Source: Actinomycetes bacterium (GTDB taxonomy: Bacteria > Actinomycetota > JAHEXW01). From it: a stretch of DNA of 64,000 nt. Made by a program: the position numbers and the translations under genes. Below, in pieces: positions 1-53,291 of this stretch. Below the pieces are notes generated by a model. It was not told the origin of the DNA. It did no database searches and saw nothing but the letters and a program-made list of their open reading frames with translations. The stretch spans positions 11,033 through 75,032 of the forward strand of contig JAHEXW010000003.1 in assembly GCA_023251915.1 (NCBI GenBank). Direction: 5' to 3'. Numbering within the stretch: the stretch's first letter is position 1; each line of letters begins with the position of its first letter.

Positions 1-140
1 ACGGTGTAGGGGGCGTGATCGGCACGTTTAGTCGCTATTTTTCCCGCGCCAATTCCGGTTTCATTCAGCGCTACGCCATGCGTTTTGTCATCGCCTTTAT
101 GTTGTTGGCGGTGGCCGTCTATTTCGTTCTCGTTCGATGA
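1..140 (+). CDS. nuoL: 3' end of a NuoL/MrpA-like antiporter subunit (partial)
   Basis: Frame from nt 3 reads GVGGVIGTFSRYFSRANSGFIQRYAMRFVIAFMLLAVAVYFVLVR*, matching the NuoL C-terminal pattern NG-x~15-(Q/N)(T/S)G-x3-Y plus the final TM helix. TGA at 138-140. Only 46 codons are visible. Confidence 0.7.
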   Translation, partial: GVGGVIGTFSRYFSRANSGFIQRYAMRFVIAFMLLAVAVYFVLVR

Positions 141-168
141 ATAGCAACATTAGGATAAGAGGGTAACC

Positions 169-1629
169 GTGATGAGTTTTCCGATTCTGACTGCCATAGT
201 GTTCTTTCCCTTAATAGGGGCCTTGGTGACTTTGTTCTACAAGCCCGAACAGGTCCGCCTCATCAAGTGGACGGCGTTGTTGGCGTCGATTGTGCCCCTG
301 GCGCTCTCAATCATCGTCATTGTTGGTTTTCATCCCGGCGGCGGCGTGCAGTTCGCGGAACGCGTCCTATGGAGCAAGACCATTGGCGCTTCTTATTACC
401 TGGGCATCGACGGGTTAAGCTTGCCGATGGTGTTTTTGTCTGCCTTGCTCAGCGTCATCGCGGTCATCGCCTCTTGGAACATCTCGGTTAAGACGAAAGG
501 TTATTTTGCCTTACTGCTTTTGTTGGAAGTTGGCATGCTCGGCGTTTTCGTCGCCTTAGACTACATCCTCTTCTATATCTTCTGGGAGCTGGTCTTGCTG
601 CCGATGTACTTTTTAATCGGCATCTGGGGCGGCAAGCGGCGCGAGTACGCCGCACTAAAGTTCTTTCTTTATACGCTCGCCGGCTCGGTCATTATGCTCC
701 TGGCTATTTTGGCTGTCTATTTCAACGGCGGGGCGAAGACCTTCGATATTCTAGCGTTGGCGGCCAAAGGGATTCCCTTAGGGCTGCAACACATCGTGTT
801 TTGGGGTTTCTTTCTCGGGTTCGCCGTCAAGGTGCCGATATTTCCATTCCATACCTGGTTGCCGGACGCGCACGTCGAGGCGCCGACCGCTATTAGCGTT
901 CTTTTGGCCGGCGTCCTGCTGAAGATGGGAACCTACGGGTTTATCCGTGTCATTTTGACGACCACTCCGGACGCATTGAAGGAATACGCATGGATTATGG
1001 CCACGCTGGCAGTTATCAGTATCATCTACGGCGCCTTGAATGCGATGATCCAGAAAGACTTGAAGCGGATGATCGCCTATTCCAGCATCAGCCACATGGG
1101 CTACGTCGTTTTGGGCATCGCCTCCGGCACGGTAATCGGGACAAACGGTGCGATCATGCAGATGTTCAGTCATGGTCTGATTACGGCGCTCCTATTCTTA
1201 CTGGTCGGGTTCATATACGAGCGAACCCATACACGCAACATCTCCGAGCTTGGCGGTCTGCTCAATAAAACGCCAGTCTTGGCGGGGATCCTTTGTTTTG
1301 CCTCGTTTGCCTCGCTCGGCTTGCCCGGACTGAGCGGCTTCATTGCTGAGTTCCTCGTTTTGGTGGGAGCTTACTCGAGCCTGCCTTGGTTCGCGGTTAT
1401 CGCATCAGGCGGCGTCGTTATTACCGCCGGTTATTTGTTGTGGATGCTGCAACGCGTTGTCATGGGCGCGTTGCCTGATAAGTACGCCGACTTGTTGGAT
1501 GCCACGCCGCGTGAAATGTTGGCCCTGGTGCCCCTCGTCGTGCTGGTTTTGGTCGTCGGGCTCTATCCGGAGTCGGTGCTAGGGTTCATTAACCACTCAG
1601 TTGTAGCACTGGTCAAAGTCGTAGGCTAA
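169..1629 (+). CDS. nuoM: NADH-quinone oxidoreductase subunit M
   Basis: 486 aa, ~14 TM; motifs GIDGLSLP, FYIFWE, FAVKVPIFPFHTWLPDAHVEAPT, LLKMGTYG, IAYSSISHMG, LGLPGLSGF. Confidence 0.95.
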   Translation: MMSFPILTAIVFFPLIGALVTLFYKPEQVRLIKWTALLASIVPLALSIIVIVGFHPGGGVQFAERVLWSKTIGASYYLGIDGLSLPMVFLSALLSVIAVIASWNISVKTKGYFALLLLLEVGMLGVFVALDYILFYIFWELVLLPMYFLIGIWGGKRREYAALKFFLYTLAGSVIMLLAILAVYFNGGAKTFDILALAAKGIPLGLQHIVFWGFFLGFAVKVPIFPFHTWLPDAHVEAPTAISVLLAGVLLKMGTYGFIRVILTTTPDALKEYAWIMATLAVISIIYGALNAMIQKDLKRMIAYSSISHMGYVVLGIASGTVIGTNGAIMQMFSHGLITALLFLLVGFIYERTHTRNISELGGLLNKTPVLAGILCFASFASLGLPGLSGFIAEFLVLVGAYSSLPWFAVIASGGVVITAGYLLWMLQRVVMGALPDKYADLLDATPREMLALVPLVVLVLVVGLYPESVLGFINHSVVALVKVVG

Positions 1630-1643
1630 GGAAAGCAGACAAA

Positions 1644-3587
1644 TTGGCGACGCAAGCGGTTATTTGGTTGATTCCGGTTGTGCCGGCGGTCGCGTTCATC
1701 GCGCTGCTGGCTTTGGGACGCGTTCGCCGCGCCGCCGCGCCTTACATCGGCCTGACAGCCGCCGTCTTATCATTGGTCGGTGCCATCTGGGCGGTTGTCG
1801 CCGTTGGTCGCGCCGGGACGATTAATTTTGACTTCATCTGGCTGACCGTCGGTAATGTGCCGCTCAAGATCGGCATGTATATAGATCCCCTGGCCGCCGT
1901 TATGCTGGTCGTCGTGACCACGGTCAGTCTGCTCGTGCAGATCTACAGCATCGGGTACATGAAGGGCGAGAAACGCTTGTCCTGGTATTACGCGGCCGTG
2001 TCCTTGTTCACCGCCTCCATGCTCAGTCTGGTGATCGCCAACAACTTCCTCCAGCTGTACATCTCCTGGGAGCTCGTCGGCCTTTGTTCGTACCTCTTGA
2101 TCGGTTTCTGGTACGAGAAGAAGAGCGCCTCGTCGGCCGCCATGAAGGCCTTTATCATCACCCGTATCGGCGACGTGGGCTTCTTCCTGGGTCTGGCGCT
2201 CTTGTTCGTTAACACCCACACCTTCGACTTTTCCGCCGTCCGCCAGATTGTCGCGGCCGGCTCACTCGGCGCCGGCACCCTGACCGCCATCGCGCTCTTG
2301 TTCTTCGCGGGCGCGGCCGGCAAGAGTGCCCAGTTCCCGTTGCACGTCTGGTTGCCTGACGCGATGGAAGGCCCGACCCCGGTCTCGGCCTTGATCCACG
2401 CCGCCACCATGGTCGCCGCCGGCGTCTATCTGGTCGCCCGTTCCTTCTTCATCTTCGAGGCGGCCCACCCCGCTGCCCTTCAGGTCGTGGCAGGCATCGG
2501 TGCCTTCACCGCCATCTTGGCCGCGGTCATCGCGGTGACCATGACCGACATCAAGAAAGTCTTGGCCTACTCGACCATCAGTCAACTCGGGTTCATGATG
2601 GCGGCCTTGGGTGTCGGCGGCTATACCGCCGCCATCTTCCACCTGACGACACACGCCTTCTTCAAGGCGCTCTTGTTTCTGGGGGCCGGGAGCGTCATCC
2701 ACGGCGCCGGCACCCAGAACATCTATGAGATGGGCGGACTCTTGAAGAAGATGAAAGTGACCGGCTGGACCTTCCTCATAGCCACCTTGAGCATCGCGGG
2801 CATCGTGCCGCTCTCCGGTTTTTGGAGCAAAGACGAGATCTTGACGGAAGCTGCCAAATCCGGCAACTACATCATCCTAGGCGTCCTCCTGGTCACGGCC
2901 TTCCTGACCGCCTTCTACATGTTCCGCCTCTACTTCGTCGTCTTCACCGGCCCGGTGCGTGACGAACACGCGCACGAGTCGCCGGCCGTCATGACGTATC
3001 CCTTGCTCATCCTGGCCGTCCCGGCGGCCCTCTTGGGACTGGCCGGCTCGCCCTTACTCGGCAACTGGTTTACGAAGTTCATCGCACTCCCCGGCGCCGA
3101 ACACATCGCCGCCGCGCCTGATTATCTGATGATGGGTCTGTCGACCGCGGCCGCTCTGGCAGGGATCGGGTTGGCCTGGGTGATGTATAAACGTAACCTT
3201 TCGGAAGAGCGGTTTGGCCGGACATTGTTCTATTTCTTCAATATCGCCAAAAGGCGTTTCTTTCTCGACGAACTTTATCAGTTCCTGATCGTGCGACCGA
3301 TCATGCGTCTGGCTGCCGCCTCGGCCTGGTTCGACATTAAGGTTCTGGACGGGGCCGTAAACTCTGTCGGACCCTTGGCGGTGCATGGAGGTTATCGCGC
3401 GGCCCAGTTTGATTCGGTTGTGATTAACAACGTTTATGATTCCGGCATCAATATCATCAAAACGATTGGCGAGGCGACCCGGCGGCGGGTCAACACCGGA
3501 TTGATACCTAGGTATCTAGCCTATATCCTGGCCGGCTTCGTTGTGCTGGCCGTAATCGTTTACGTTCTGTTCGTTATGGTCAAATAG
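1644..3587 (+). CDS. nuoL: NADH-quinone oxidoreductase subunit L with extended amphipathic helix (TTG start)
   Basis: 647 aa; WELVGLCSYLLIGFW, KAFIITRIGD, GKSAQFPLHVWLPDAMEGPTPVSALIHAATMV, HAFFKALLFL; extra 26-aa FD..V(D/N) unit at 3330-3407. Confidence 0.95.
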   Translation: MATQAVIWLIPVVPAVAFIALLALGRVRRAAAPYIGLTAAVLSLVGAIWAVVAVGRAGTINFDFIWLTVGNVPLKIGMYIDPLAAVMLVVVTTVSLLVQIYSIGYMKGEKRLSWYYAAVSLFTASMLSLVIANNFLQLYISWELVGLCSYLLIGFWYEKKSASSAAMKAFIITRIGDVGFFLGLALLFVNTHTFDFSAVRQIVAAGSLGAGTLTAIALLFFAGAAGKSAQFPLHVWLPDAMEGPTPVSALIHAATMVAAGVYLVARSFFIFEAAHPAALQVVAGIGAFTAILAAVIAVTMTDIKKVLAYSTISQLGFMMAALGVGGYTAAIFHLTTHAFFKALLFLGAGSVIHGAGTQNIYEMGGLLKKMKVTGWTFLIATLSIAGIVPLSGFWSKDEILTEAAKSGNYIILGVLLVTAFLTAFYMFRLYFVVFTGPVRDEHAHESPAVMTYPLLILAVPAALLGLAGSPLLGNWFTKFIALPGAEHIAAAPDYLMMGLSTAAALAGIGLAWVMYKRNLSEERFGRTLFYFFNIAKRRFFLDELYQFLIVRPIMRLAAASAWFDIKVLDGAVNSVGPLAVHGGYRAAQFDSVVINNVYDSGINIIKTIGEATRRRVNTGLIPRYLAYILAGFVVLAVIVYVLFVMVK

Positions 3588-3612
3588 AGTTTAAGAAGGG
3601 AGACACGGGGTC

Positions 3613-5052
3613 TTGGCCCGAGAATTCATTTATCTGGTACCGGAAATAATAGTACTCGCGACAGCTCTGGGTGTGTTGGTGCTCGATCTGGTGCTGGGCG
3701 CCAAGCGCAAGCCGCTTATCTTAGCGCTTGCCTCTGTCGCCGGGCTGCTGGCGGCGGCTGGATTTACCGCGAACCTCATGGGACAGCGGGCCATTGTGAT
3801 GGCGGACATGTTCGTCATCGATTCGTTTGGCCTCGTGCTCAAGGTCGTTATCTTGGTCGGCGCCGCGTTATCGGTTCTCTTGGCGGTTGGGTTTCTAGAG
3901 AGACCGAAATCGCATCCCGGGGAATATGATTTCCTGATTGTGGCCTCCACTCTGGGGATGATGGTCATGACAGGCTCGAACAACCTATTGCTGGCCTTTC
4001 TTGGAATTCAGCTAACCAGTATCCCTCTGTATATATTGGCGGGCTTTAAGCGCAATGACAGTAAATCTAGCGAGGCCGCCCTTAAATATTTCTTACTGGG
4101 CGTTCTTACAGCCGCCCTCATGTTATACGGCATGTCATTACTATATGGCCTGACGGGGACGCTTAATCTGACAACTATTGCGGCTCGCCTGGGCGGGATA
4201 AAGACCAACGACCCGGTTTTGTTCTTAGGTATGGTCTTCATAATAGCCGGCTTCAGTTTCAAGATCGCCGCCGTGCCGTTCCACTTTTGGGCGCCTGACG
4301 TCTACGAAGGGTCGCCGACCTGCGTGACAGCGTTCATTTCGGCTGTCCCCAAGATTGCCGGCTTCGCGGTTCTGTTGCGACTGGTCTACACAGCCTTCCC
4401 GGCCTTGACTCCGCAATGGACAGGTTTAATGGCGCTTATGGCAGTACTGACTATGGTGACGGGCAATATCATGGCCATCCCGCAAAAGGACATCAAGCGG
4501 ATGCTGGCGTTTTCCGGGATCGCGCATGTAGGGTACGCTTTGATCGCGTTGGCCGTACCGGGCCAGAACGCCATGGGTGCGCTCGTATTTTACCTGTTGG
4601 CATACTCCGCGATGACCGCGGGCGCCTTCACGATCGTCGTCGCGGTCGGCCGCGTTTCCCATGAGCACCAAATCACGAGTTTCGCCGGCTTGGGTACACG
4701 GGCGCCGGTCCTGGCGGCGGCGATGACCGTGTTCTTGCTGTCTATGCTTGGTTTTCCGTTGACAGCCGGTTTCACGGGAAAGTTTCTGGTATTCAGCGCG
4801 GCCATCGAGAAACACTATGTCTGGTTGGCGCTGATCGGGGTTATCAATAGCGTCATCTCACTTTACTACTACTTTGGCGTCGTCCGGCAGATGTATCTGA
4901 CACCTGCGCGCGCAACGACGAAAATGCAGGTATCGGGTTTGGTATGGCTGCTGATCGCAATAGCGTTAACGGTAACGTTCGCTCTGGGCATCTACCCCGA
5001 GCCGGTAATTAATCTGACGCGTCATCTTGTTGTTCTATTTGCCAGGTTCTAG
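3613..5052 (+). CDS. nuoN: NADH-quinone oxidoreductase subunit N (TTG start)
   Basis: 479 aa; SSEAALKYFLLG, FKIAAVPFHFWAPDVYEGSPT, KRMLAFSGIAH, PLTAGFTGKF. Confidence 0.95.
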   Translation: MAREFIYLVPEIIVLATALGVLVLDLVLGAKRKPLILALASVAGLLAAAGFTANLMGQRAIVMADMFVIDSFGLVLKVVILVGAALSVLLAVGFLERPKSHPGEYDFLIVASTLGMMVMTGSNNLLLAFLGIQLTSIPLYILAGFKRNDSKSSEAALKYFLLGVLTAALMLYGMSLLYGLTGTLNLTTIAARLGGIKTNDPVLFLGMVFIIAGFSFKIAAVPFHFWAPDVYEGSPTCVTAFISAVPKIAGFAVLLRLVYTAFPALTPQWTGLMALMAVLTMVTGNIMAIPQKDIKRMLAFSGIAHVGYALIALAVPGQNAMGALVFYLLAYSAMTAGAFTIVVAVGRVSHEHQITSFAGLGTRAPVLAAAMTVFLLSMLGFPLTAGFTGKFLVFSAAIEKHYVWLALIGVINSVISLYYYFGVVRQMYLTPARATTKMQVSGLVWLLIAIALTVTFALGIYPEPVINLTRHLVVLFARF

Positions 5053-5076: not shown

Positions 5077-5955
5077 TTGTTTAATAAGATTCTCTTTCCG
5101 ACGGACTTCTCAGCTTACGCGGAGAAGACGCTGGAATACTTGGCGGGCTTCAAAGACATCGGCGCCGAGCATGTCGTCCTAGTGCACACGGTCCAAGAAG
5201 CGGAAGAGTATCCTGTGACGATGGCGCGTCAAGAACGCATGGCAGCCGCGCTTAAAGAGAAGGAAGAGTGGCTCCGCACGCAGGGATTGGAGGCTTCCAG
5301 CCTGGTGCCCATCGGTACTCCTTACCGGGAAATTCTTAAAGCGGCCAGGACGGAAGAGGTAGACCTGATCGTCATCGGCAGCCAGGGCAAAGGCCTGCTG
5401 GACGAGGTTCTGCTCGGCAGCGTATCCGACCGGGTTGCCCGCGAAGCGACAATGCCGGTCTTGGTCGTCAAGCACAAAGTGCTCCAAGACGCCACGGGGG
5501 TAAAGGTTGAGAAACGCAGCGCCGAATCGTTCCAAAAGATACTCTATCCCACCGACGGGTCCCCGTGCGCCCAATCAGCGTTGGAATACATCAAGGGCAT
5601 GAGCCTGCCCTTCTGTGGTCAGGTGATCATGGCTAACATTATCGACCCGAAGACCGTGGCCACCGGCAAGATAGAGGCGGCGAAAGCCGAAATGCTGGCA
5701 AAACTAAAGACCAGCGCGAAGGCCATGGAAGGCACGTGCATCCATGTGACGACCGACGTCCGGGTCGGCGTACCGTTGGAAGAGCTTCTCAAAATCGGTA
5801 AAGAGGAAAAAGTAACTCTGATCGTCATGGGCAGCACAGGAAAAGGATTCTTTCAAGAAATGCTGATTGGCAGCCTTTCCGAAAACATGATTCGGAAGGC
5901 GAGATGCCCGGTGCTGATCATTCACGACGAGATTTGCGCCATACCTGTTGATTGA
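5077..5955 (+). CDS. Universal stress protein, tandem Usp domains
   Basis: KILFPTDFS; two GSxGxG...GSVS/GSLS ATP-binding signatures; PVLII. Confidence 0.92.
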   Translation: MFNKILFPTDFSAYAEKTLEYLAGFKDIGAEHVVLVHTVQEAEEYPVTMARQERMAAALKEKEEWLRTQGLEASSLVPIGTPYREILKAARTEEVDLIVIGSQGKGLLDEVLLGSVSDRVAREATMPVLVVKHKVLQDATGVKVEKRSAESFQKILYPTDGSPCAQSALEYIKGMSLPFCGQVIMANIIDPKTVATGKIEAAKAEMLAKLKTSAKAMEGTCIHVTTDVRVGVPLEELLKIGKEEKVTLIVMGSTGKGFFQEMLIGSLSENMIRKARCPVLIIHDEICAIPVD

Positions 5956-5984
5956 CGAGCTAAAGCTTTAAGGAGCTGATCACT

Positions 5985-6866
5985 ATTTTTTCGACCATCC
6001 TGGTTCCGACGGACTTCTCCGCATATGCCAAAAAGACCCTGGAATATGTTTGGAGCCTGCAGGACATCGGAGTCAAAACGGTAATCCTGATGCACGTGAC
6101 CGCGACGATCGAAGAATATCCCGTCATGATGACGAGGCATGAGCAAGTTCGCGACCGGTTGGAGGAAGAAGCGGCGCTGCTGCGCGCGCGCGGACTGAAG
6201 GTTAAGACGCGAGCGGAGACGGGAACCGCTTACAGACAGATATTGCGCGTCGCCGAAGCCGAGGCGGCCTCGATGATAGTGATTGGTTTTCACGGCGCCG
6301 GGCTGCAAGGATTGGTTGTCGGAAGCGTGGCGGACCGTGTCACCCGGGAGTCGCCGATCCCCGTAATGCTGGTCAAATATCGTTCGGTTGATGACGGCGA
6401 AGGCGGTACGCGGCTGGAGAAGGTCACCGCGGAATCGTTCCGCAAGGTTTTTTACCCGACCGACTTCTCCTTATGTTCTACGCGCACGCTAGAATATGTG
6501 CGCGAGTTCCGCAAAGCCGGTTGCGAAGAAGTAATTCTGGCCAGTGTTATTGACACAAGGCCGCACCGCACCGCGTTTAACGCCGACCAGGCTCAGGTGG
6601 AGACGACTAAGAAGTTGGACGTGATCCGCCAGGAACTGGAAGAGCGCGGTTTGAAAGCCAAAGTCATCGTGCGCCAGGGAACGCCGCTGGAAAAACTGCT
6701 TGATATCGCCCGCGAAGAGGAAGTGTCGATGATCGTTCTGGGGTCGACAGGTAAGGGCTTCTTTAAGGAGATGCTTATGGGGAGCGTCAGTGAGAGCATC
6801 GTTCGGCGCGCCGTGTGCCCGGTCCTCGTCATCCACGATGAGGTTTGCACGCTTACATTTGACTAG
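5985..6866 (+). CDS. Universal stress protein paralog, tandem Usp domains (probable ATT start)
   Basis: The frame of the 6090 ORF stays open upstream to TAA at 5961. Codons from 5985 read (M)FSTILVPTDFS, aligning with MFNKILFPTDFS of the upstream paralog. AAGGAG at 5970-5975; 293 aa. Confidence 0.85.
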   Translation: MFSTILVPTDFSAYAKKTLEYVWSLQDIGVKTVILMHVTATIEEYPVMMTRHEQVRDRLEEEAALLRARGLKVKTRAETGTAYRQILRVAEAEAASMIVIGFHGAGLQGLVVGSVADRVTRESPIPVMLVKYRSVDDGEGGTRLEKVTAESFRKVFYPTDFSLCSTRTLEYVREFRKAGCEEVILASVIDTRPHRTAFNADQAQVETTKKLDVIRQELEERGLKAKVIVRQGTPLEKLLDIAREEEVSMIVLGSTGKGFFKEMLMGSVSESIVRRAVCPVLVIHDEVCTLTFD

Positions 6867-6980
6867 TCCTCTCGTCGCCCTCGTTATTACGAGGTTGTCT
6901 TCCAGGTGATTACCTAGTATAACGTCACCTCGGCCATCGGTATGGTGATAGATACTCTTAGTCCCTAGCTGGAGGCGATT

Positions 6981-8507
6981 ATGGCGGAGAATACGGCGTT
7001 GGACGTCAATCAAGAGAGCCTTAACGTCGACATAAAGGTCATAAATCTGATTCCCGAGGATATGGCCCGTCGCCGGTGTCTGATGCCACTTTCGATATCT
7101 CGGAGCATGCTGACCGTCGCGATGGTCGACCCCGGCGACCTGTTCTCGCTCGAGGACATGAGACTCCACGCCGGTATGGCGATCAACCCTGTCTATGCCG
7201 ATAAAAGGACGATCCTCAAGGCGATCAACAAGTATTATCGGGGCGCCTATCTTCTGGAAAAGACCGCTAGGGCTGTCAGCCAAACGAACTTCGGGTTAAT
7301 AACCGGAGACCGGATTCCAGGAGGCAAGCTAGCTCAACTGACGGAGCAGCCACCTCTCGTGCAACTAGTCGACGATATTATTCTTGAGGCGTTGCACGCC
7401 GACGCCAGCGACATCCACATTGAACCGGAGCGTGATTCGACTCGGGTCAGGTACCGCGTAGACGGGTTCCTGCATACTTTTTCTTCCCTGCCAAAGCATC
7501 TGGCGGTGCCGGTCGTATCCCGAATCAAGATTCTCGCCGAAATGGACGTTACCGAAAAACACGAACCACAGGACGGACAGATCATCAGAATGATCGGAGA
7601 CGAAGAGGTCAATCTGCGCGTCGCTACGTTCCCGACCACGAATGGGGAGAAGGTCGCGATCCGCATCATTGGCAAGGGCGCGAGTTCAATCGCTCTGAAC
7701 AGCAGCGGTCTGACAGAGGCTAACTTCGCGTTGGTTAAACGCTTGATTGCGCGACCGAGCGGCCTCGTGCTGGCTTGCGGCCCGACCGGCTGTGGCAAGA
7801 CCTCAACTTTGTATTCAATTCTGAGCCTTATGAACAGCGATAAAGTTAACATAGTGACGCTCGAGGATCCGATCGAGTTCGATCTCCCAGGAGTCAACCA
7901 GGCTAAAGTGCTGCCTAAGCGTGGTCTGACCTTTGCTCGCGGTTTGCGCGCTATCCTTCGCCAAGATCCAAATGTGGTCATGGTCGGGGAAATTCGCGAC
8001 CTGGAGACGGCCGATCTGGCAATCCGTGCGTCGCTGACGGGACACATGGTGCTGTCGACGCTGCATACAAATGACGCCTTAGGCGTTATAACCAGGTTGA
8101 TCGACATGGGTTTTGACGAATTCTTGATTTCTTCCGCGCTCAGCGGTGTTATCGCTCAACGGCTGGTTCGGACGATTTGTCCTAACTGTCGAACTGAATA
8201 CACACCCACGCCGGAAATTCTCGAATCGGTCGGGATAGTGTCGAGCGGCGGCCCAACGTTTTATCACGGCGCCGGCTGCGAGGATTGCCAGCACACCGGG
8301 TACAAAGGACGGACCGGCATATACGAGGTGATTTACGTTAACGAGGCGCTCAGACAGATGATCCTGCGGAAGGCGCCGGAACCGGATATCAGACAGGCGC
8401 TAAGAGACAGCGGCTATGCTTCCATGCTTGAGGATGGTCTGGACAAGGTCGAGCAAGGGATTACGACGCTGGACGAAGTCTTGCGCGAGACAAGGGCGTC
8501 GGATTAA
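6981..8507 (+). CDS. GspE/PilB-family secretion/pilus extension ATPase
   Basis: ASDIHIEP, Walker A GPTGCGKTSTL, TLEDPIE, DPNVVMVGEIRD, GHMVLSTLH, tetracysteine CPNC...CEDC. Confidence 0.93.
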   Translation: MAENTALDVNQESLNVDIKVINLIPEDMARRRCLMPLSISRSMLTVAMVDPGDLFSLEDMRLHAGMAINPVYADKRTILKAINKYYRGAYLLEKTARAVSQTNFGLITGDRIPGGKLAQLTEQPPLVQLVDDIILEALHADASDIHIEPERDSTRVRYRVDGFLHTFSSLPKHLAVPVVSRIKILAEMDVTEKHEPQDGQIIRMIGDEEVNLRVATFPTTNGEKVAIRIIGKGASSIALNSSGLTEANFALVKRLIARPSGLVLACGPTGCGKTSTLYSILSLMNSDKVNIVTLEDPIEFDLPGVNQAKVLPKRGLTFARGLRAILRQDPNVVMVGEIRDLETADLAIRASLTGHMVLSTLHTNDALGVITRLIDMGFDEFLISSALSGVIAQRLVRTICPNCRTEYTPTPEILESVGIVSSGGPTFYHGAGCEDCQHTGYKGRTGIYEVIYVNEALRQMILRKAPEPDIRQALRDSGYASMLEDGLDKVEQGITTLDEVLRETRASD

Positions 8508-8519
8508 CAAACCATTTTT

Positions 8520-8711
8520 CTATTTACTCATAAGCAGTCCCGTCAACCCCAGGACTATAAGAACGAGCGCAATCACTTTGCTGAGCCAAAAGGCAAAAGA
8601 GTAGCCGCGGGACCAGCTCCTGACCCAGCGTCGGGGCAGGGTTTGGGGTAAGAGAAACAGGGCCCACCCGGCGACGAACAACGTTAGCGGCACTATCTTG
8701 GCGGAAATCAT
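8520..8711 (-). CDS. Small two-TM membrane protein (63 aa), probably leaderless
   Basis: MISAKIVPLTLFVAGWALFLLPQ...VIALVLIVLGLTGLLMSK; TATAAT 6 nt upstream of ATG. Confidence 0.55.
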   Translation of the reverse strand: MISAKIVPLTLFVAGWALFLLPQTLPRRWVRSWSRGYSFAFWLSKVIALVLIVLGLTGLLMSK

Positions 8712-8732
8712 TGGACTATTATAACAGTCGGC

Positions 8733-8768
8733 TTGACACATCACGTAAAAGAGGACTAAAATAGTCCT
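8733..8768 (+). promoter_or_regulatory. Sigma-70 promoter with overlapping IscR-type-1-like palindromic operator
   Basis: TTGACA (8733-38), 18 nt spacer, TAAAAT (8757-62); inverted repeat AGGACTA-AAA-TAGTCCT (8752-68) matches the GACTR-www-YAGTC core. Confidence 0.75.
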
Positions 8769-8794
8769 ATAACAGATAGCGTTAGGCAGGCTTC

Positions 8795-9214
8795 ATGGAA
8801 TTGATCAAGAGAAACACGGATTATGCGCTGCGCGCCCTGGTCCACATGGCGGAAGCAGACAACGACAGAATACACCCGATGGGTGAGCTGGCAGCTGCTA
8901 CAGGAGCGCCGGAGACCTTCCTGAGGAAAGTCGTTCAGAAACTGGACGCTGCCGGGGTCGTTGCAACCCGGCGGGGCCGCGGCGGCGGGGTATGTTTCCA
9001 GAAAGACCCGGACGCGATAACGGTCTTAGAGGTTGTCGAGGCGGTACAAGGTCCGGTGGCGATCAATAAGTGTTTCATCGCCAACCGCGAATGTGACGAC
9101 CGTTTTGCCTGCTTGATTCGTAGTAATCTAGGCGGGATCCAAAACGATCTGCTGGAGCTGTTGCGGGCCGCGACGGTCACTAATCTGGCCCGCGACACGC
9201 GTTTGCCGGCCTGA
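8795..9214 (+). CDS. Rrf2-family transcriptional regulator with three C-terminal Cys (Fe-S type)
   Basis: TDYALRALVH, LRKVVQKL, TRRGRGGG, ITVLEVVEAVQG, C-x6-C-x5-C. Confidence 0.92.
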   Translation: MELIKRNTDYALRALVHMAEADNDRIHPMGELAAATGAPETFLRKVVQKLDAAGVVATRRGRGGGVCFQKDPDAITVLEVVEAVQGPVAINKCFIANRECDDRFACLIRSNLGGIQNDLLELLRAATVTNLARDTRLPA

Positions 9215-9248
9215 CAATGTTAGATCTCAAGAGAGGCGAGTAAAGATT

Positions 9249-9476
9249 ATGGCTGAACAATGTCCCGGCTCCAAGTTGATACGCGAACCGCAGCCTGAAG
9301 ACATCACCTGCCCGTGGTGTAAGGTGAGCGTCGAGATTTGGACCGATGAAACCAGGGCGAGATGCCGCAACTGCGGCCACGTTATCGTGCGTGAAATGAC
9401 GCAATCTTGTCTGGATTGGTGCGTGAAGGCCAAGGAATGCCTGGGGGTGTCCGAGAGTGAAGAAACGGGCCACTAA
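9249..9476 (+). CDS. Small 8-Cys metal-binding (zinc-ribbon/Fe) protein
   Basis: 75 aa: CPG, CPWC, VEIWTDE, CRNC, SCLDWC, EC; purine-rich RBS (agaggcgag). Confidence 0.75.
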   Translation: MAEQCPGSKLIREPQPEDITCPWCKVSVEIWTDETRARCRNCGHVIVREMTQSCLDWCVKAKECLGVSESEETGH

Positions 9477-9711
9477 GGTTGTCCTTGGCCTTCTTGTCCT
9501 GGTCCTGGCGATAGGAACCCTTGCGATGGTTGTTCTGTCGCGGTCAGGTCCTGGACCTTCGATTGCTCTAGACCCTACCGGAAAGAGGATCCATATCACC
9601 GGAGGCATTCTGCCGCCCGGTTGCCGTTGTCACAGCATTGATAAGAAGGTCGTTGACGAGCACAAGAAGTACGGGATCACTGATTGCGCGAAGTGCCACC
9701 CGAAGAAGTAA
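9457..9711 (+). CDS. Membrane-anchored mini c-type cytochrome
   Basis: 84 aa, GTG start, basic N-terminus plus TM helix, CRCH and CAKCH motifs, extra His. Confidence 0.65.
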   Translation: MKKRATKVVLGLLVLVLAIGTLAMVVLSRSGPGPSIALDPTGKRIHITGGILPPGCRCHSIDKKVVDEHKKYGITDCAKCHPKK

Positions 9712-10021
9712 CCCGCAGAGCGACGCCCGAGGAAATGCCGGCCAACGCCGGCACGATCGCGAAGAACGAGACTAAAATGTTCGGCCGGCTGCTCTCTACA
9801 ATCGCGATGCCTAACCAAGGCGCTGCAATATAAGCGACTGGTATCCCCAGCCCCAGAATCAAACCCCACCGCCACGAATCTTTTGGCCACATAGCGCCCA
9901 GCACTAGCCCGGCAATCAGCAAAAAAGCCACTGTCGGCAACAATTGATCTTGTTTGATTTGAATAAACCCAGCCGCAGCCGCTCCGGCGACACTGGTTAT
10001 CCAAGGGGTTAGTTTATGCAT
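9677..10021 (-). CDS. Small membrane protein (114 aa, ~4 TM), probably leaderless
   Basis: MHKLTPWITSVAG...WRWGLILGLGIP...; TATAAT 6 nt upstream of ATG 10021. Confidence 0.65.
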   Translation of the reverse strand: MHKLTPWITSVAGAAAAGFIQIKQDQLLPTVAFLLIAGLVLGAMWPKDSWRWGLILGLGIPVAYIAAPWLGIAIVESSRPNILVSFFAIVPALAGISSGVALRVTSSGGTSRNQ

Positions 10022-10152
10022 GGAAGCATTATACCTTAGCGCCGGCGTTGTCTTGTTTCGTCTCAATTCCCGCGTTCTAGAAATCCCGGGACCCAGGATG
10101 ACATCTTCACGTTTGGCCTTGTTGCTATCGTTTCTCGGACGATCCCGCTTAT

Positions 10153-10209
10153 GTAGCTGCCAACCTTTAGGTCGGCAGCCGACTGCCGGTCTAAAAGACC
10201 GGCAGCTAC
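10153..10209. repeat. REPIN-like doublet of GTAG-family REP sequences
   Basis: GTAG-CTGCCAACC-TTTA-GGTCGGCAG, then in inverted orientation GTAG-CTGCCGGTCT-TTT-AGACCGGCAG. Confidence 0.7.
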
Positions 10210-10259
10210 ATTTTTGCACCCAAAAGCCAACGAAAAAGACTCTGCGAAGTCGTGATCTT

Positions 10260-10541
10260 GCGAGTGAGTGGTGCCCCCGGATTTTCTAGGTCGCGGCTCG
10301 TGCGTTCGCGGGTGAGTTTGCCGCGCCTGCCTGCCGGCAGGCAGGTCGCCCCTTTTTGACGAGCGAGTGTCTGCGCGGGTGATGCGACTGGGGGGACCCC
10401 CGATGCGCGTGCAGGCCACCAATCGGCGAGCACGCAGTGGGGGAAGTCTGTCGCGGCAGGACCCGCGCGTGATGCGAGTGAGTGGTGCCCCCGGATTTTC
10501 GAGGTTCGCGGCTCATGCGTTCGCGGGTGAGTTTGCCGCGC
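10260..10541. repeat. Two 67-68 bp direct repeats, each containing the tRNA-Arg 3' end
   Basis: 10260-10326 and 10474-10541 differ at 3 positions; both contain TGGTGCCCCCG (= 10648-10658); perfect 20-bp palindrome CCTGCCTGCCGGCAGGCAGG at 10326-10345. Confidence 0.85.
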
Positions 10542-10609
10542 TCATTCCATTCGCTCGCAATGACGAGCTTTTCGCGCCTGCCGGCGCGAACAGGTTCGAA
10601 CAGTAAAAG

Positions 10610-10652
10610 CACCATCTCGAAATCCTACTCTCAGCAGGACTTCGAGATGGTG
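10610..10652 (-). terminator. Intrinsic terminator overlapping the tRNA-Arg 3' end
   Basis: CACCATCTCGAA...TTCGAGATGGTG inverted repeat, followed by CTTTT on the minus strand. Confidence 0.7.
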
Positions 10653-10724
10653 CCCCCGACAGGATTCGAACCTGTGGCCTACCGCTTAGGAGGCGGTCGC
10701 TCTATCCAACTGAGCTACGAGGGC
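10648..10724 (-). tRNA. tRNA-Arg(CCT)
   Basis: GCCCTCGTAGCTCAGTTGGATAGAGCGACCGCCT-CCT-AAGCGGTAGGCCACAGGTTCGAATCCTGTCGGGGGCACCA; full cloverleaf, encoded CCA. Confidence 0.97.
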
Positions 10725-10774
10725 AAGAAACGTGCATTGCGATCTGCCGGGAAGGGGCGCGGCAATCTGACTTA

Positions 10775-11719
10775 CTATCTTTTCAGCGCGGCCACGATTA
10801 TTTTGCCGATGAGATCGGTAAAATCGACGCCGGCGTGGGCGGCGGCCATCGGGAAAAGGGACGTCTCCGTCAATCCCGGGATGGTATTTAGTTCAAGCAC
10901 ATATGGCGTATCAGTTTTAGCTTCGACGATGAAATCGACGCGCGAGAAATCACGGCAACCGAGCGCTTTGTGCGCCTGCAAAGCCAGGCTCTGCACCTTC
11001 TTGGCCAACTCGTCTGGCAGGCGGGCCGGTATGAAGTACTCGGTCGCGCCCATCGTGTACATCGCTTGGAAATCGAAATGGCCTTTCTTCGGTGTGATCT
11101 CGACGGGCGGCAGGGCCCGCGCTCGTTCCGCGCCCAAGACGCTGACCGCGACTTCCTTGCCGCGGACGAACTTTTCCAGTATGACTTTGTCCCCATAGGA
11201 GAACGCGCCCAAAAGGGCGGCGGTGATATCTTCTTCTTTTTGCACGAAATTGACGCCTTGCGCCGAACCCTGGCTGGACGGTTTGATCACGAGCGGCAGG
11301 CCCAGGCGGGCGATAATGTCTTTAACCACGTTGGCCGCGCCCAGTTCCTTGACGGCGCCCGTCGACAGAGCGATGAAATCCGGAGTCGGGATGCCTTCCC
11401 GCAAGAAAATGTCTTTAGACAGAGACTTATCCATTCCCAGGACGCTGGCCAGGACACCGCTGCCTGTATAGGGAAGGCCCATAGCTTCCAGGAGACCCTG
11501 GATGGCGCCGTCCTCGCCGAAACGGCCGTGCAGGGCGATGAAGCACAAGTCGGGCTGTTCTTGACGGAGATGGTTGACGATGTGTTCATCGACATCCAGG
11601 CTGACCACCCGGTAGCCCAATGCCTTGGCGGCTGTGGCGACCCGTTTTCCGCTCTGGAAGGAGATGTCTCGCTCCAGTGAATGTCCGCCCATCAGCACGG
11701 CGATCTTCGGTTTCATCAA
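10775..11719 (-). CDS. ddl: D-alanine--D-alanine ligase
   Basis: IAVLMGGHSLERDISFQSG, ALHGRFGEDG, YTGSGVLAS, MDK, VIKP, CRDFSRVDF, ELNTIPGLT. Confidence 0.95.
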   Translation of the reverse strand: MMKPKIAVLMGGHSLERDISFQSGKRVATAAKALGYRVVSLDVDEHIVNHLRQEQPDLCFIALHGRFGEDGAIQGLLEAMGLPYTGSGVLASVLGMDKSLSKDIFLREGIPTPDFIALSTGAVKELGAANVVKDIIARLGLPLVIKPSSQGSAQGVNFVQKEEDITAALLGAFSYGDKVILEKFVRGKEVAVSVLGAERARALPPVEITPKKGHFDFQAMYTMGATEYFIPARLPDELAKKVQSLALQAHKALGCRDFSRVDFIVEAKTDTPYVLELNTIPGLTETSLFPMAAAHAGVDFTDLIGKIIVAALKR

Positions 11720-11726
11720 CAGCCTC

Positions 11727-12980
11727 CTAGAGTTTCAAGCTTCGGTAGAGTTCCATCTCTTGTTCGACGACCTCGGCCAACCGCCGCACGCCCTCCCTGA
11801 TGTCGCTCTCTTTCATGAATGAATAGTTCAGCCGCATGCAGTTGCGGCCTGTGCCGTCGGCGAAAAATGCCTTGCCCGGAACGTAGGCGACCTTCTGTTC
11901 TACCGCTTTAGCCAGCATGTTGGTCGTGTCTAGATATTCCGGGAGAGTGACCCAGACAAAGAAACCGCCTTTCGGCTTGGTCCATTTTACGCCGCGTGGG
12001 AAGTATTCCTCGCAGGCGTTGAGCATCTTATCCCGGCGTTTGATGTAGATGCCGATCAGCTTCTTAAGATGCGTTTTCATGTCAGTTTCCGCGAAATAAG
12101 CAGTCACGACCCGTTGCGTGAGGCTGGAACTGCACAGATCGGCGGCTTGCTTGGCGAAAATCAGTTTCTCGCGGATCGGACGCGGCGCCACAACCCAACC
12201 AACCCGCAGACCGGGCGACAGGATCTTGGAAAAAGTACCGAGATAGACGACGTTGTCGGGATCCAGCGTCTTAATTGACGCCAGCGGTTCTTCCTCGAAC
12301 GACAAACGCCGGTAGGCGTTATCCTCAACTATCAGTGTGTTGTATGCGCGGGCCAGTTTGACAAGTTTTTTGCGCCGGGCCAATGACATGGTCCCGCCGC
12401 TCGGGTTCTGGAAGCTCGGAATGACATAGATGAACCGGGGAGTAATCCCGCGCTTCTTTAGTTGCTCCAACTCTTCCGCGACCTTGTCGATCTTTAGGCC
12501 GTTGTCATCGCACTCGATCTGGATTATGTTGGCTTGATAGCTAAGAAACGCGTTTAAGGCCCCGACGTAGCTTGGCGCCTCGGCGATAATTGTGTCGCCG
12601 GGGTTGACGAATATCTTCCCAACCAACTCAAGACCCTGCTGGGACCCGTCGGTGATGACGATATCGTCGGGTGTGCATGCCACATCCTCGTCGGCCATAA
12701 ACTTGGTCAGCCATACACGCAGCGGTTCGTAGCCTTCCGATGAGCCATAGTTTAGCGGCGCCGGGCCGTCTTTCATGATTTCGCCTAGGATGCGAGACAT
12801 TTTGTCCAGATTCAGCGCTTTGGTATAGGGAGCGCCGCCCGCCAGCGCGATGATGTCGGGCCGCTCTGTGACAGCCAGCAGGTCGCGGACCTCGCTCGAG
12901 CGCATCGACTCGGTTCGGTCCGAGTATAGGTGTTGCCACTTATCAAAAAACAGTTCCTGGGATGATTGCTGGTCTTTCAC
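11727..12980 (-). CDS. PLP-dependent aminotransferase class I/II (probable GTG start at 12980)
   Basis: ITDGSQQGL, EAPSYVGA, YVIPSFQNPSG, EDNAY, GTFSKILSPGLRVGW; no HTH domain. Confidence 0.9.
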   Translation of the reverse strand: MKDQQSSQELFFDKWQHLYSDRTESMRSSEVRDLLAVTERPDIIALAGGAPYTKALNLDKMSRILGEIMKDGPAPLNYGSSEGYEPLRVWLTKFMADEDVACTPDDIVITDGSQQGLELVGKIFVNPGDTIIAEAPSYVGALNAFLSYQANIIQIECDDNGLKIDKVAEELEQLKKRGITPRFIYVIPSFQNPSGGTMSLARRKKLVKLARAYNTLIVEDNAYRRLSFEEEPLASIKTLDPDNVVYLGTFSKILSPGLRVGWVVAPRPIREKLIFAKQAADLCSSSLTQRVVTAYFAETDMKTHLKKLIGIYIKRRDKMLNACEEYFPRGVKWTKPKGGFFVWVTLPEYLDTTNMLAKAVEQKVAYVPGKAFFADGTGRNCMRLNYSFMKESDIREGVRRLAEVVEQEMELYRSLKL

Positions 12981-21631: not shown

Positions 21632-23944
21632 ATGGCGAGAGAGCGAATCCGTTTATTAATCAAAGGTGTCGTTCAAGGGGTCGGATTCCGGCCCTTTGTT
21701 TATCAGCTGGCGCAACGGCACGATGTGTCCGGATTCGTCCTCAATACCGGTGAGGGCGTTGTTGTCGAGGCTGAAGGTGAACTTAAAGACCTGGAGCGTT
21801 TCCGCCACGCGCTGAAGCCGGAAGCTCCGCCCCGCGCCGTCATCGAGTCGATCAGCCCGCGCATCATGCACGTCCAGGGCGACGCCGGGTTCGTTATTCA
21901 ACCTAGTCTGGCCCAACCCGACGAATTTCAACTAGTTTCTCCGGACATCGCTACCTGCGACGATTGCGCGGCGGAAGTCTTCGATCCAGCCGACCGACGT
22001 TGGCGCTACCCCTTTACAAACTGCACTAATTGCGGGCCCCGGTTCACCATTATCGAAGACATGCCTTACGACCGGCCCAAAACCACCATGAATAAATTTG
22101 AGATGTGTTCGGATTGCCAGCGGGAGTATGATGATCCGAATAACCGGCGCTTTCATGCCCAACCAAACGCTTGTCCGGTGTGTGGGCCGAGGCTGTCGTT
22201 TGTTGGCAGACGACCCCAGGACCAGACGACCGCAGACCAGCAAACCGTAAACCTTGAGGGCGAAGAGGCCCTAGCGGCGGCGGTCGAGATGTTGCAAGCC
22301 GGGCAGATCGTCGCCATCAAGGGACTGGGTGGTTTCCAGCTGGCCTGTGACGCGGGTAACGAAGACGCCGTAAAACGACTGCGCGACAAGAAGCATCGCT
22401 ATGGCAAGCCGCTGGCGGTGATGACGGAGACGATCAAGGAGGCCGCGGAGATATGTTTTATCAATGCCGCGGAACAAGAGCTGCTAGAGTCTCCGGAACG
22501 TCCGATCGTTCTGCTGCGCCGCCGCCCTAAAGACGTTGTCGCGCCGAACATCGCACCAGGCAACAACTATATCGGCATTATGCTTCCCTACACGCCGCTG
22601 CATCAACTACTGCTGCGTGACACAGGGCTGATATTGGTCATGACAAGCGGAAATATAAGCGAGGAGCCGATTGCCGCCGAAAACACCGAGGGATTGCGAC
22701 GTCTCGAACATGTCGCCGACGGCTGGCTGCTGCACGACCGAGATATCTACTCCCGCTATGACGATCCGGTTGTCCGTATTGTCGAGGGACACCGCGTTAT
22801 GATCCGGCGCGCCCGTGGCTACGCACCCTACCCGGTTCACCTGACTTTTAAGGCCAAGAAAGAGGTTTTAGCCGTCGGCGGTGAACTCAAAAGCACGTTT
22901 TGTCTTCTTAAGGAAGGCTACGGGTTCGTGTCACAGCATATTGGCGACATGGAAAATGTGGAAACGTTTGAGCATTTCGAACGGACGCTTGAGCTTTACA
23001 AGCGACTGTTCCGAATTAATCCTGAGGTCGTCGCCTGTGACATGCATCCGGATTACTTCTCGTCCAAATTCGCGCGCGATCTCAAGGCGCCCCGTTTGGT
23101 TGAGGTCCAGCATCACCACGCGCACATCGTCAGCTGCGCGGTTGAGAACGGCTGGCGCGACCAGGTAATCGGTGTTGCTTTTGACGGTACCGGTTACGGC
23201 ACCGACGGCACGATCTGGGGCGGGGAATTTCTGCTGGCGGACTGGGCCGGTTTCGAACGGGCCGCTCATCTTAAGCAGATTCGGTTACCCGGTGGCGAGG
23301 CAGCGGTTGAGAAGCCCTACCGGACCGCGCTCTCCTATCTGTTGAGCACATATGGTGACGCCTACGCCGATCTGGGGTTGGACTTCTTGAGCCGGCTTGA
23401 TCCGGTGGAAACAGAGATTCTGGAACGTCAGGTGGCGACCGGCTTGTTGTCCCCCTTAACGTCCAGCGCCGGTCGGTTATTTGACGCCGTCTCTTCGCTC
23501 ATCGGGGTGCGGGACGCTATCGAGTTCGAGGGGCAAGCGGCAATCGAACTGGAGATGCAGTCAGACGAGGCCGAGCACGGCCGTTATGAGTTTGACTATA
23601 TAGCGGCGCCGGGCCAACCGACGGTGATCAACACCGACCCGCTGATCAAGGGCATTGTTAATGATTTGCTGAAATGCGTGCCAGCCGCCGTTATCGGTGC
23701 GAAATTCCAGGCCACGGTCGCGGACATAATAGTCGCGACCTGCGGGCGCCTAAGGGAAGCGACTGGCGTGCGAACAGTCGCCTTGTCAGGCGGTGTTTTT
23801 CAAAACGCGACTTTATACGCGAGAGTTATCAAGGGTCTAAAGAAGCAGGATTTTCGCTTACTGTTGCACAAGGAACTGCCCGTTAACGACGGCGGCATTT
23901 CTCTAGGGCAGGCTGTTGTCGCGCACACCCTCGCGGCCACGTAA
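21632..23944 (+). CDS. hypF: Carbamoyltransferase HypF
   Basis: Acylphosphatase domain GVVQGVGFRPFV, zinc fingers CDDC..CTNC / CSDC..CPVC, IKGLGGFQLAC, QHHHAH, DGTGYG, PVNDGG. Confidence 0.97.
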   Translation: MARERIRLLIKGVVQGVGFRPFVYQLAQRHDVSGFVLNTGEGVVVEAEGELKDLERFRHALKPEAPPRAVIESISPRIMHVQGDAGFVIQPSLAQPDEFQLVSPDIATCDDCAAEVFDPADRRWRYPFTNCTNCGPRFTIIEDMPYDRPKTTMNKFEMCSDCQREYDDPNNRRFHAQPNACPVCGPRLSFVGRRPQDQTTADQQTVNLEGEEALAAAVEMLQAGQIVAIKGLGGFQLACDAGNEDAVKRLRDKKHRYGKPLAVMTETIKEAAEICFINAAEQELLESPERPIVLLRRRPKDVVAPNIAPGNNYIGIMLPYTPLHQLLLRDTGLILVMTSGNISEEPIAAENTEGLRRLEHVADGWLLHDRDIYSRYDDPVVRIVEGHRVMIRRARGYAPYPVHLTFKAKKEVLAVGGELKSTFCLLKEGYGFVSQHIGDMENVETFEHFERTLELYKRLFRINPEVVACDMHPDYFSSKFARDLKAPRLVEVQHHHAHIVSCAVENGWRDQVIGVAFDGTGYGTDGTIWGGEFLLADWAGFERAAHLKQIRLPGGEAAVEKPYRTALSYLLSTYGDAYADLGLDFLSRLDPVETEILERQVATGLLSPLTSSAGRLFDAVSSLIGVRDAIEFEGQAAIELEMQSDEAEHGRYEFDYIAAPGQPTVINTDPLIKGIVNDLLKCVPAAVIGAKFQATVADIIVATCGRLREATGVRTVALSGGVFQNATLYARVIKGLKKQDFRLLLHKELPVNDGGISLGQAVVAHTLAAT

Positions 23945-53256: not shown

Positions 53257-53291
53257 CTTTACGGAAAGTGTATGTATTTCAAGGGGGTTTT

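Follow-up and report, generated by a model that had tools for sequence, protein, structure and literature searches.

Can the membrane arm of one complex I hold two NuoL subunits, with two lateral helices and two copies of the anchoring last transmembrane helix? The question is raised by an operon that runs into the start of a 64,000-nucleotide (nt) stretch of DNA from an uncultured groundwater actinobacterium (the window; position 1 is its first letter), in which nuoM lies between two nuoL genes and nuoN follows. The upstream NuoL is here called NuoL1 and the one encoded at 1644-3587 NuoL2; related loci and proteins are given L and P numbers (L001, P0005). Judged from gene content and sequence, we give a probability of about 0.5 to a four-pump "2L" complex I with NuoL1, NuoM, NuoL2 and NuoN in one membrane arm. 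This assembly is the most interesting proposal made here, and the most solid new fact is that an internal block of the two nuoL genes evolves in concert.

Organization of the operon

The first 140 nt of the window had been read in an initial annotation as the C-terminus of a NuoL, and this reading was correct. Frame 3 translates from position 3 to 137, with the stop at 138-140, as GVGGVIGTFSRYFSRANSGFIQRYAMRFVIAFMLLAVAVYFVLVR*, and GVGGVIGTFSRYFSRANSGFIQRYAMRFVIAFMLLAVAVYFVLVR is identical to the C-terminal 45 residues of P0005, a protein of 614 amino acids (aa) encoded on the same 97,170-nt contig. P0005 was recovered by a protein search with NuoL2, as the next match after the window's own protein. 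It contains the Pfam domains Proton_antipo_N (1.9e-18) and Proton_antipo_M (1.1e-81). The upstream open reading frame (ORF) is thus a full-length NuoL with both domains and with the signs of purifying selection described below, and not a fragment, a pseudogene or a non-NuoL protein. Behind the NuoL1 tail follow nuoM, a complete nuoL2 and nuoN, all supported by Pfam, in the order that had been proposed.

NuoL2 carries Proton_antipo_N (4.1e-19) and Proton_antipo_M (1.2e-81). The solved structures closest to it are NdhF1, Nqo12 and NuoL, with MrpA and MrpD scoring far lower. An AlphaFold2 model of the single chain has a mean predicted local distance difference test (pLDDT) score of 88.7, and a structure search with it confirms the NuoL fold. 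NuoM shares 74% identity with that of L023 and 68.6% with that of L024, and NuoN shares 72% (L023), 69% (L022) and 62% (L024); the exact products of both genes are on record, that of nuoM in ENA ERZ27297709. Look-ups of the exact products gave no match for a NuoM read from a GTG start, for NuoL2 or for P0005. The gaps between nuoL1 and nuoM, nuoM and nuoL2, and nuoL2 and nuoN are 31, 14 and 25 nt; a ribosome-binding site is present in each of them, and promoter- or terminator-like sites in this operon segment are not above chance. The operon has a single M-type gene, and its additional pump gene is of the L type. No further antiporter-like gene was found in the 64-kb window besides the NuoL1 tail, nuoM, nuoL2 and nuoN.

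The upstream half of the operon was pieced together from contigs of the same organism (L063 and a 9,648-nt ENA contig) that carry exactly P0176, a 499-aa GltD-like/NuoI fusion, and P0261, a NuoJ; both are proteins of the 97,170-nt contig. These contigs read GalT-nuoB-C-D-P0176-A-H-J-K, followed by a 12-nt gap and a 117-aa ORF that is cut by the contig end and is the N-terminus of NuoL1. The order of the 12-gene operon is nuoB-C-D-(truncated GltD-like/NuoI fusion)-A-H-J-K-L1-M-L2-N. The initial annotation had asked whether nuoEFG or a hydrogenase module lies upstream, and neither is present in the gene lists of the two upstream contigs.

The two NuoL cores are identical

Residues 72-507 of NuoL1 and 74-509 of NuoL2 (436 aa, roughly TM3 to TM15, counting transmembrane helices) are 100% identical. 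All differences are confined to the first ~72 residues, which hold the first two transmembrane helices, and to the lateral helix (HL) with TM16. The N-terminal parts are ~24% identical and the C-terminal parts (107 vs 138 aa) ~22%, giving 76% overall.

A perfect repeat of 1.3 kb breaks short-read assemblies, and in the 97-kb contig it must have been spanned by bridging, which would leave room for the second NuoL being an assembly artefact, whether from a repeat that was collapsed or duplicated or from two strains joined in a chimera. The repeat was tested in Logan k31 unitigs of the groundwater run, which hold 98% of the region. The unitig over window positions 1-885 reaches 212 nt past the window start, that is, 28-29 nt into the NuoL1 repeat; another stops at 1890, 28 nt into the NuoL2 repeat, and a unitig resumes at 3143, 28 nt before that repeat ends. 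Depth is 21.4 in the unitig that lies within the repeat (1861-2351) and 9.1-11.3 in the flanks. Unitigs of single depth join the NuoL1 tail to nuoM, and nuoM through the NuoL2 head into the core, with a gap of 19 nt between them inside nuoM. With two distinct N-termini, two distinct C-termini, single-depth joins and a double-depth core, the only path is A-R-B-R-C, and the only linear order is therefore L1-M-L2. The repeat occurs twice, and its two copies match at every nucleotide.

A k141 assembly of the same organism (ERZ27297709) is split here into three contigs whose ends lie ~139 nt inside the repeat boundaries. L001, from a different metagenome-assembled genome (MAG) and species (82.6% nt identity, NuoM 93% identical, synonymous divergence dS 1.07), shows independently the same join of NuoL1 tail, nuoM and NuoL2 head, and its k141 contig also ends ~139 nt inside the same repeat boundaries. 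The L001 and ENA contigs have the same length of 2,324 nt; that they are one sequence was considered and rejected, the equal size coming from the k-1 repeat bases that bound both. A similar L-M-L order with diverged copies is present in L026. An artefact is, on this evidence, very improbable.

Between the two species the orthologues are near silent-site saturation, yet in either genome the paralogous cores do not differ. The cores therefore evolve in concert by gene conversion, and those of NuoL1 and NuoL2 are kept identical by conversion that is ongoing. In a tree of the core, NuoL1 and NuoL2 group together within the L2-type clade (support 100/97). The ends of NuoL1 are nearest to L1-type orthologues (N-terminal 46-51%, C-terminal 39-41%, vs 24% and 22% to NuoL2), which together with the core tree shows that the L2 core overwrote the L1 core. 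A simple recent tandem duplication was rejected, since the ends are only 22-24% identical and differ in ancestry. Gene conversion is known to make bacterial paralogues evolve in concert, for example tufA and tufB, which are identical within a genome while their orthologues diverge. Unlike in that pair, conversion affects here only 1.3 kb in the interior of two genes, and the subunits that these encode differ in the ends that make contacts.

A NuoL tail that looks chimeric was observed in L025 (3522-5441, P0012): the start of its helix region is L1-type (FTGWTVINALNSFAWL) and its end L2-type (SRKAYTGSLSRYLG), which suggests recombination between the two L types.

Compared with L001, the ratio of nonsynonymous to synonymous divergence (dN/dS) is 0.037 for the NuoL1 tail, 0.24 for the NuoL2 N-terminus and 0.04 for NuoM. 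The L-specific ends of both proteins are thus under purifying selection, which indicates that both genes are in use. The proton-path residues E143, K227, H333/H337/K341 and K396 are invariant in 110 homologues and are located in the shared core; E143, K227, K341 and K396 are those we take to correspond to E144, K229, K342 and K399 of E. coli NuoL.

Pump gene content in related loci

Across the clade nuoM and nuoN are orthologous and the L content varies. The order is K-L-M-N with an L1-type, one-module NuoL in L024 (modules are the 26-residue HL units treated below) and with a two-module NuoL in L027; K-M-L-N with three modules in L023 and L028, and with the chimeric, two-module tail in L025; K-L-M-L'... 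with a two-module first NuoL and diverged copies in L026/L062; K-M-L-M-N in L054; and L1-M-L2(-N) in the window and L001. Judged from these arrangements, the clade readily gains and loses L genes and HL modules.

The variation suggests an explanation with three pumps per complex, in which NuoL1 and NuoL2 are alternative distal subunits (N-M-L1 or N-M-L2). The two versions would differ in TM1-2 and in the length of the clamp helix, which could, for instance, affect coupling, the stability of the complex or the binding of partners. Single-L relatives of both types have orthologous NuoM, NuoN and Q-module, so both L types may fit the same site next to NuoM; a two-module HL is normal for the sole NuoL of three-pump operons; and with identical pump cores no catalytic difference between the versions is expected. 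Against this, the two genes share an operon in which nothing points to separate regulation, both are under purifying selection across a dS of ~1, and the segments in which they differ make contacts with neighbouring subunits in solved structures, which would fit different positions better. We also know of no complex I with interchangeable L subunits made from one transcript. Alternative subunits are on balance unlikely, though they are the strongest competitor of the four-pump complex.

The same fluidity of gene content (L-M-N, M-L-N, L-M-L, L-N with an M remnant in L022, L-M followed by hypB in L002), together with the loss of one or the other L in relatives, would also be expected if one L, with or without a neighbouring gene, acted outside complex I, for example as an antiporter-like L2-N or L1-M module, or if one copy had arisen as a by-product of recombination that is tolerated and is now being lost. 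A dN/dS far below 1 in the L-specific ends and intact ORFs for both genes in two species argue otherwise. No genes for Mrp small subunits occur nearby, and L022 looks rearranged or broken rather than like a designed L-N module. A separate role or decay is accordingly given a low probability, well below that of alternative subunits.

Several of the related loci have unusual pump gene sets. In L054 (~6300-12931, a metagenome sequence) K-M(503)-L(700)-M(495)-N contains four pump genes, with a single NuoL between two NuoM. Two complete complex I-type clusters stand in tandem in L027 (1-19864), each with a GltD-NuoI fusion (614 and 619 aa). An extra pair of N-like (486 aa) and M-like (488 aa) genes is found at 61-3000 of L004, and an ordinary K-L-M-N set follows ~5 kb downstream of it in that contig. 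In L033, L036, L041 and L043, two L/MrpD-like genes (~30% identical to the window core) are followed by M, and by N where the contig reaches it; L041 has a further M-like gene between its two L-like genes. These four clusters are probably of the green-complex-I or Manganitrophus kind. In L002 (2088-2533), from a related Actinomycetota MAG, a gene-free stretch of ~300 nt comes after a two-module nuoL and nuoM, and then a HypB-like start where nuoL2-nuoN would be expected. In L022 a 109-117-aa nuoM remnant (2261-2590) precedes nuoL-nuoN, with UvrA-like fragments upstream, and this locus is rearranged, broken or misassembled.

Length of the lateral helix

The initial annotation had described a 26-codon quasi-duplication in nuoL2 and taken the lengthened lateral helix for a sign of a fourth pump. 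The motifs FDIKVLDGAVN (nt 3330) and FDSVVINNVYD (nt 3408) do lie at the positions given for them, 78 nt apart. The two 26-codon units share 5 of 26 aa and 21 of 78 nt; the duplication is therefore old and would not stand on the nuoL2 sequence alone, and a recent internal duplication was rejected. A family alignment, with two phased FDxxVIDGxVN motifs, supports the duplication. After the first motif NuoL2 is ~29-34 residues longer than Nqo12, mycobacterial NuoL and cyanobacterial NdhF1, and NuoL1 is not.

For 47 complete NuoL genes from related loci, the length of the HL was taken from the conserved Asp at which the helix begins to the invariant Gly that precedes TM16. By this measure the HL has 78 residues in NuoL2 vs 53 in one-module relatives; a count by hand from a slightly different start point gave 52 for NuoL1 and 80 for NuoL2. 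Helices of 53 residues (one module) occur in L019, L021 and L046, of 77-79 residues (two modules) in about 36 loci, NuoL2 included, of 102 residues (three modules) in L023 and L028, and of 153 residues (five modules) in L031. P0038 (715 aa) was also observed to have five modules. The two-module class forms the large majority among the best 120 database matches. Most two-module NuoL genes belong to simple K-L-M-N operons, and the kilobases of sequence flanking these on each side hold no extra pump gene, and the genuine clusters with two NuoM (2M) in L020, L053 and L055 (K-L-M-M-N) have two modules as well. A 26-aa insertion in the NuoL of three-pump clusters has already been noted (Yu et al., 2022, PMC9040806). 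The extension is thus normal in three-pump homologues, and the second module of NuoL2 is therefore not evidence for a fourth pump; helix length as a ruler of pump number was rejected after the survey.

Within the operon, NuoL1 has one module and NuoL2 two. AlphaFold2 models NuoL1 with one 55-residue helix (532-586) directly before TM16 (590-613), and NuoL2 with a 56-residue helix (538-593), a break, a short helix (603-613) and TM16 (620-646).

Electron input and quinone site

NuoD retains the quinone-site residues His38 and Tyr87 (T. thermophilus Nqo4 numbering), its ATHGVLR and RMDY aligning to STHGVLR and RMDY of Nqo4, and the enzyme is therefore expected to be a quinone reductase. The initial annotation had proposed coupling to ferredoxin or H2, pointing to hyp genes and an Ior in the window. 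Coupling to a hydrogenase was rejected: the quinone site is intact, and the hypF and Ior-like genes lie 16-48 kb away with no link to the operon seen.

P0176 keeps Fer4_20, positions 1-119 of 291 of the Pyr_redox_2 profile, and the NuoI Fer4_7 domain; a complete Pyr_redox_2 (FAD plus NAD(P)H) is absent from it and is found in L024. The GltD-NuoI fusion is complete (614-634 aa) in L024, L027 and L062, and is 488-508 aa long, with the NAD(P)H-binding part gone, in the window organism, L023 and L028. Since the flavoprotein fused to NuoI has no NAD(P)H domain, the donor is probably a low-potential one rather than a NuoEFG module, possibly ferredoxin. The truncated form of the fusion was observed to co-occur with L2-type NuoL.

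A possible four-pump arrangement

In a four-pump complex, the four antiporter-like subunits would share one arm, probably in the order Q-site ... N-M-L1-L2. NuoL1, with its one-module HL, would take the canonical position, and NuoL2, with an HL one 26-residue module longer, would sit one position farther out. Such a quinone reductase would have four pump modules plus the E-channel and might move ~5 ions per 2 electrons. This would be affordable with a donor more reducing than NADH, matching the loss of the NAD(P)H domain. In solved complex I, TM1-2 and HL/TM16 face the proximal neighbour and strap the arm. NuoL1 and NuoL2 differ in just these segments, which would fit two positions better than one. 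The 2L version had been put forward in the initial annotation; one tight operon, four antiporter-like subunits and the lack of nuoEFG speak for it, and the helix-length argument has fallen away. Four- and five-pump relatives of complex I have been described (PMC9040806, PMC6606698).

A number of observations weigh on the other side. Close relatives with orthologous NuoM, NuoN and Q-module have one L of either type, and either type can apparently serve as the sole L beside the same NuoM. In the L-M-L lineage of L026/L062 the first L already has two modules. NuoL genes with three and five modules stand in operons with only three pump genes, and HL length is no reliable ruler of pump number. AlphaFold2 confidence is low for the second module and TM16 of NuoL2. 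An RNA run of the same sample gave no coverage of the region. Finally, we know of no structure in which one arm has a pair of lateral helices and a pair of TM16 anchors.

A more detailed model, held more tentatively than the four-pump composition, would have two tandem NuoL forming a double strap-helix clamp over four pumps. The pump cores would be interchangeable cassettes held identical by gene conversion, the position of each NuoL would be set only by its short TM1-2 and HL/TM16 adaptors, and the repeats around nuoM would allow unequal crossing-over that adds or removes pump units. Unequal crossing-over at the 1.3-kb direct repeats would explain the L-M-N, M-L-N and L-M-L-N forms in close relatives.

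Comparison with known systems

In the 2M complex I of Chadwick et al. (2018), as presented in PMC6606698 and PMC9040806, the fourth antiporter-like gene is a second nuoM, nuoEFG is usually absent, and the NuoL HL has one additional 26-residue module; a higher ion/electron ratio or reverse flow to ferredoxin was proposed. As far as those accounts go, the window operon resembles 2M complex I in its fourth antiporter-like gene, the lack of nuoEFG and the 26 additional HL residues of NuoL2. It differs in having no second nuoM: the extra gene encodes another NuoL, which has an HL and a TM16 of its own, and the two L cores are identical.

In the green complex I of rhizobia and the five-pump Complex_I_3 of Ca. 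Manganitrophaceae, two adjacent MrpD-like subunits replace NuoL (Degli Esposti and Martinez-Romero, 2016; Yu et al., 2022, PMC9040806). Shared with these are two antiporter-like subunits on the L side and one HL with a 26-aa insertion. NuoL1 and NuoL2, however, are NuoL-type (Proton_antipo_N) and 76% identical overall, and nuoM lies between their genes; they are not adjacent MrpD-like subunits. The window complex is a member of neither the 2M nor the green complex I/Complex_I_3 group, and it would work like them.

With canonical NuoL/Nqo12/ND5/NdhF, both NuoL1 and NuoL2 share the fold (TM-score ~0.8), the domains, the pump residues and the TM15-HL-TM16 extension. The alignment with Nqo12, NuoL and NdhF1 continues past the point where the HL begins. 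The nuoL1 gene directly follows nuoK, as is canonical, and nuoL2 lies between nuoM and nuoN. Canonical complexes have one NuoL each, and the solved examples compared have a one-module HL.

Complex I-like enzymes of 11 subunits without NuoEFG, some with a GltD-type flavoprotein replacing or fused to NuoI, have been described from mbx-like operons (Degli Esposti, 2015, PMC4758237). The window operon likewise has no N-module and joins a GltD-like Fer4_20/FAD part to the NuoI ferredoxin domain. Unlike in those enzymes, the NAD(P)H-binding part is deleted in the window organism and its nearest relatives (488-508 vs 614-634 aa), and the window operon has four pump genes. No description of a two-NuoL operon was found in the literature on a second, two or additional NuoL.

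Features of the window and of related loci

The coordinates of the features are collected in Table 1. Downstream of nuoN, window positions 5077-9214 encode two tandem-domain universal stress proteins (Usp), a PilB/T2SSE ATPase with MshEN (6981-8507) and an Rrf2 regulator (8795-9214). The Usp and Rrf2 genes hold the same position in relatives; a Usp gene after nuoN is kept in L022, L023, L024 and L028.

Table 1. Location of features in the window and in related loci.
Feature	Sequence	Coordinates	Strand	Remarks
nuoL1 3' end (last 45 codons, end of HL and TM16, and stop)	Window	3..140	+	Translation is the C-terminus of P0005; gene start upstream of window
nuoM (485 aa)	Window	172..1629	+	Pfam Proton_antipo_M 2.8e-83
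nuoL2 (647 aa), complete NuoL-type with own HL and TM16	Window	1644..3587	+	Pfam Proton_antipo_N and Proton_antipo_M
nuoL2 core (1308 nt, codons 74-509)	Window	1863..3170	+	Second copy in nuoL1 codons 72-507
NuoL2 lateral-helix region (residues 538-619)	Window	3255..3500	+	Module 1, 3327-3404; module 2, 3405-3482
NuoL2 TM16 (residues 620-646) and last residue	Window	3501..3584	+	AlphaFold2 helix 620-646; mean hydrophobicity 0.66-0.92
nuoN (479 aa), final gene of the operon	Window	3613..5052	+	Pfam Proton_antipo_M 2.1e-75
Tandem-domain universal stress protein	Window	5077..5955	+	Pfam Usp, two stretches; conserved downstream neighbour
hypF (HypF carbamoyltransferase)	Window	21632-23944		~16.6 kb downstream of operon end
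Ior-like gene (indolepyruvate/2-oxoacid:ferredoxin oxidoreductase alpha-like)	Window	53268-55103		~48 kb downstream of operon end
Multi-module nuoL	L031	1660-3867		Five modules
Multi-module nuoL	L023	10001-12010		Three modules
Multi-module nuoL	L028	11478-13487		Three modules
GltD-NuoI fusion	L063	7455-8954		
GltD-NuoI fusion	L024	5888-7792		
GltD-NuoI fusion	L023	4849-6315		
GltD-NuoI fusion	L062	5903-7783		

Implications

For genome annotation, the number of HL modules cannot predict the number of pumps, and the present data add to existing evidence on this point. To our knowledge, all described extra-pump cases have either an additional NuoM or MrpD-like subunits in place of NuoL. Such relatives of complex I have been read as tuning the ion/electron ratio to the available energy, or as enzymes that drive electron flow in reverse. 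For two subunits of one complex to evolve in concert over an internal block is unusual in itself. The pair is also a natural experiment: since the cores are identical, any functional difference between NuoL1 and NuoL2 must lie in ~70 N-terminal and 110-140 C-terminal residues.

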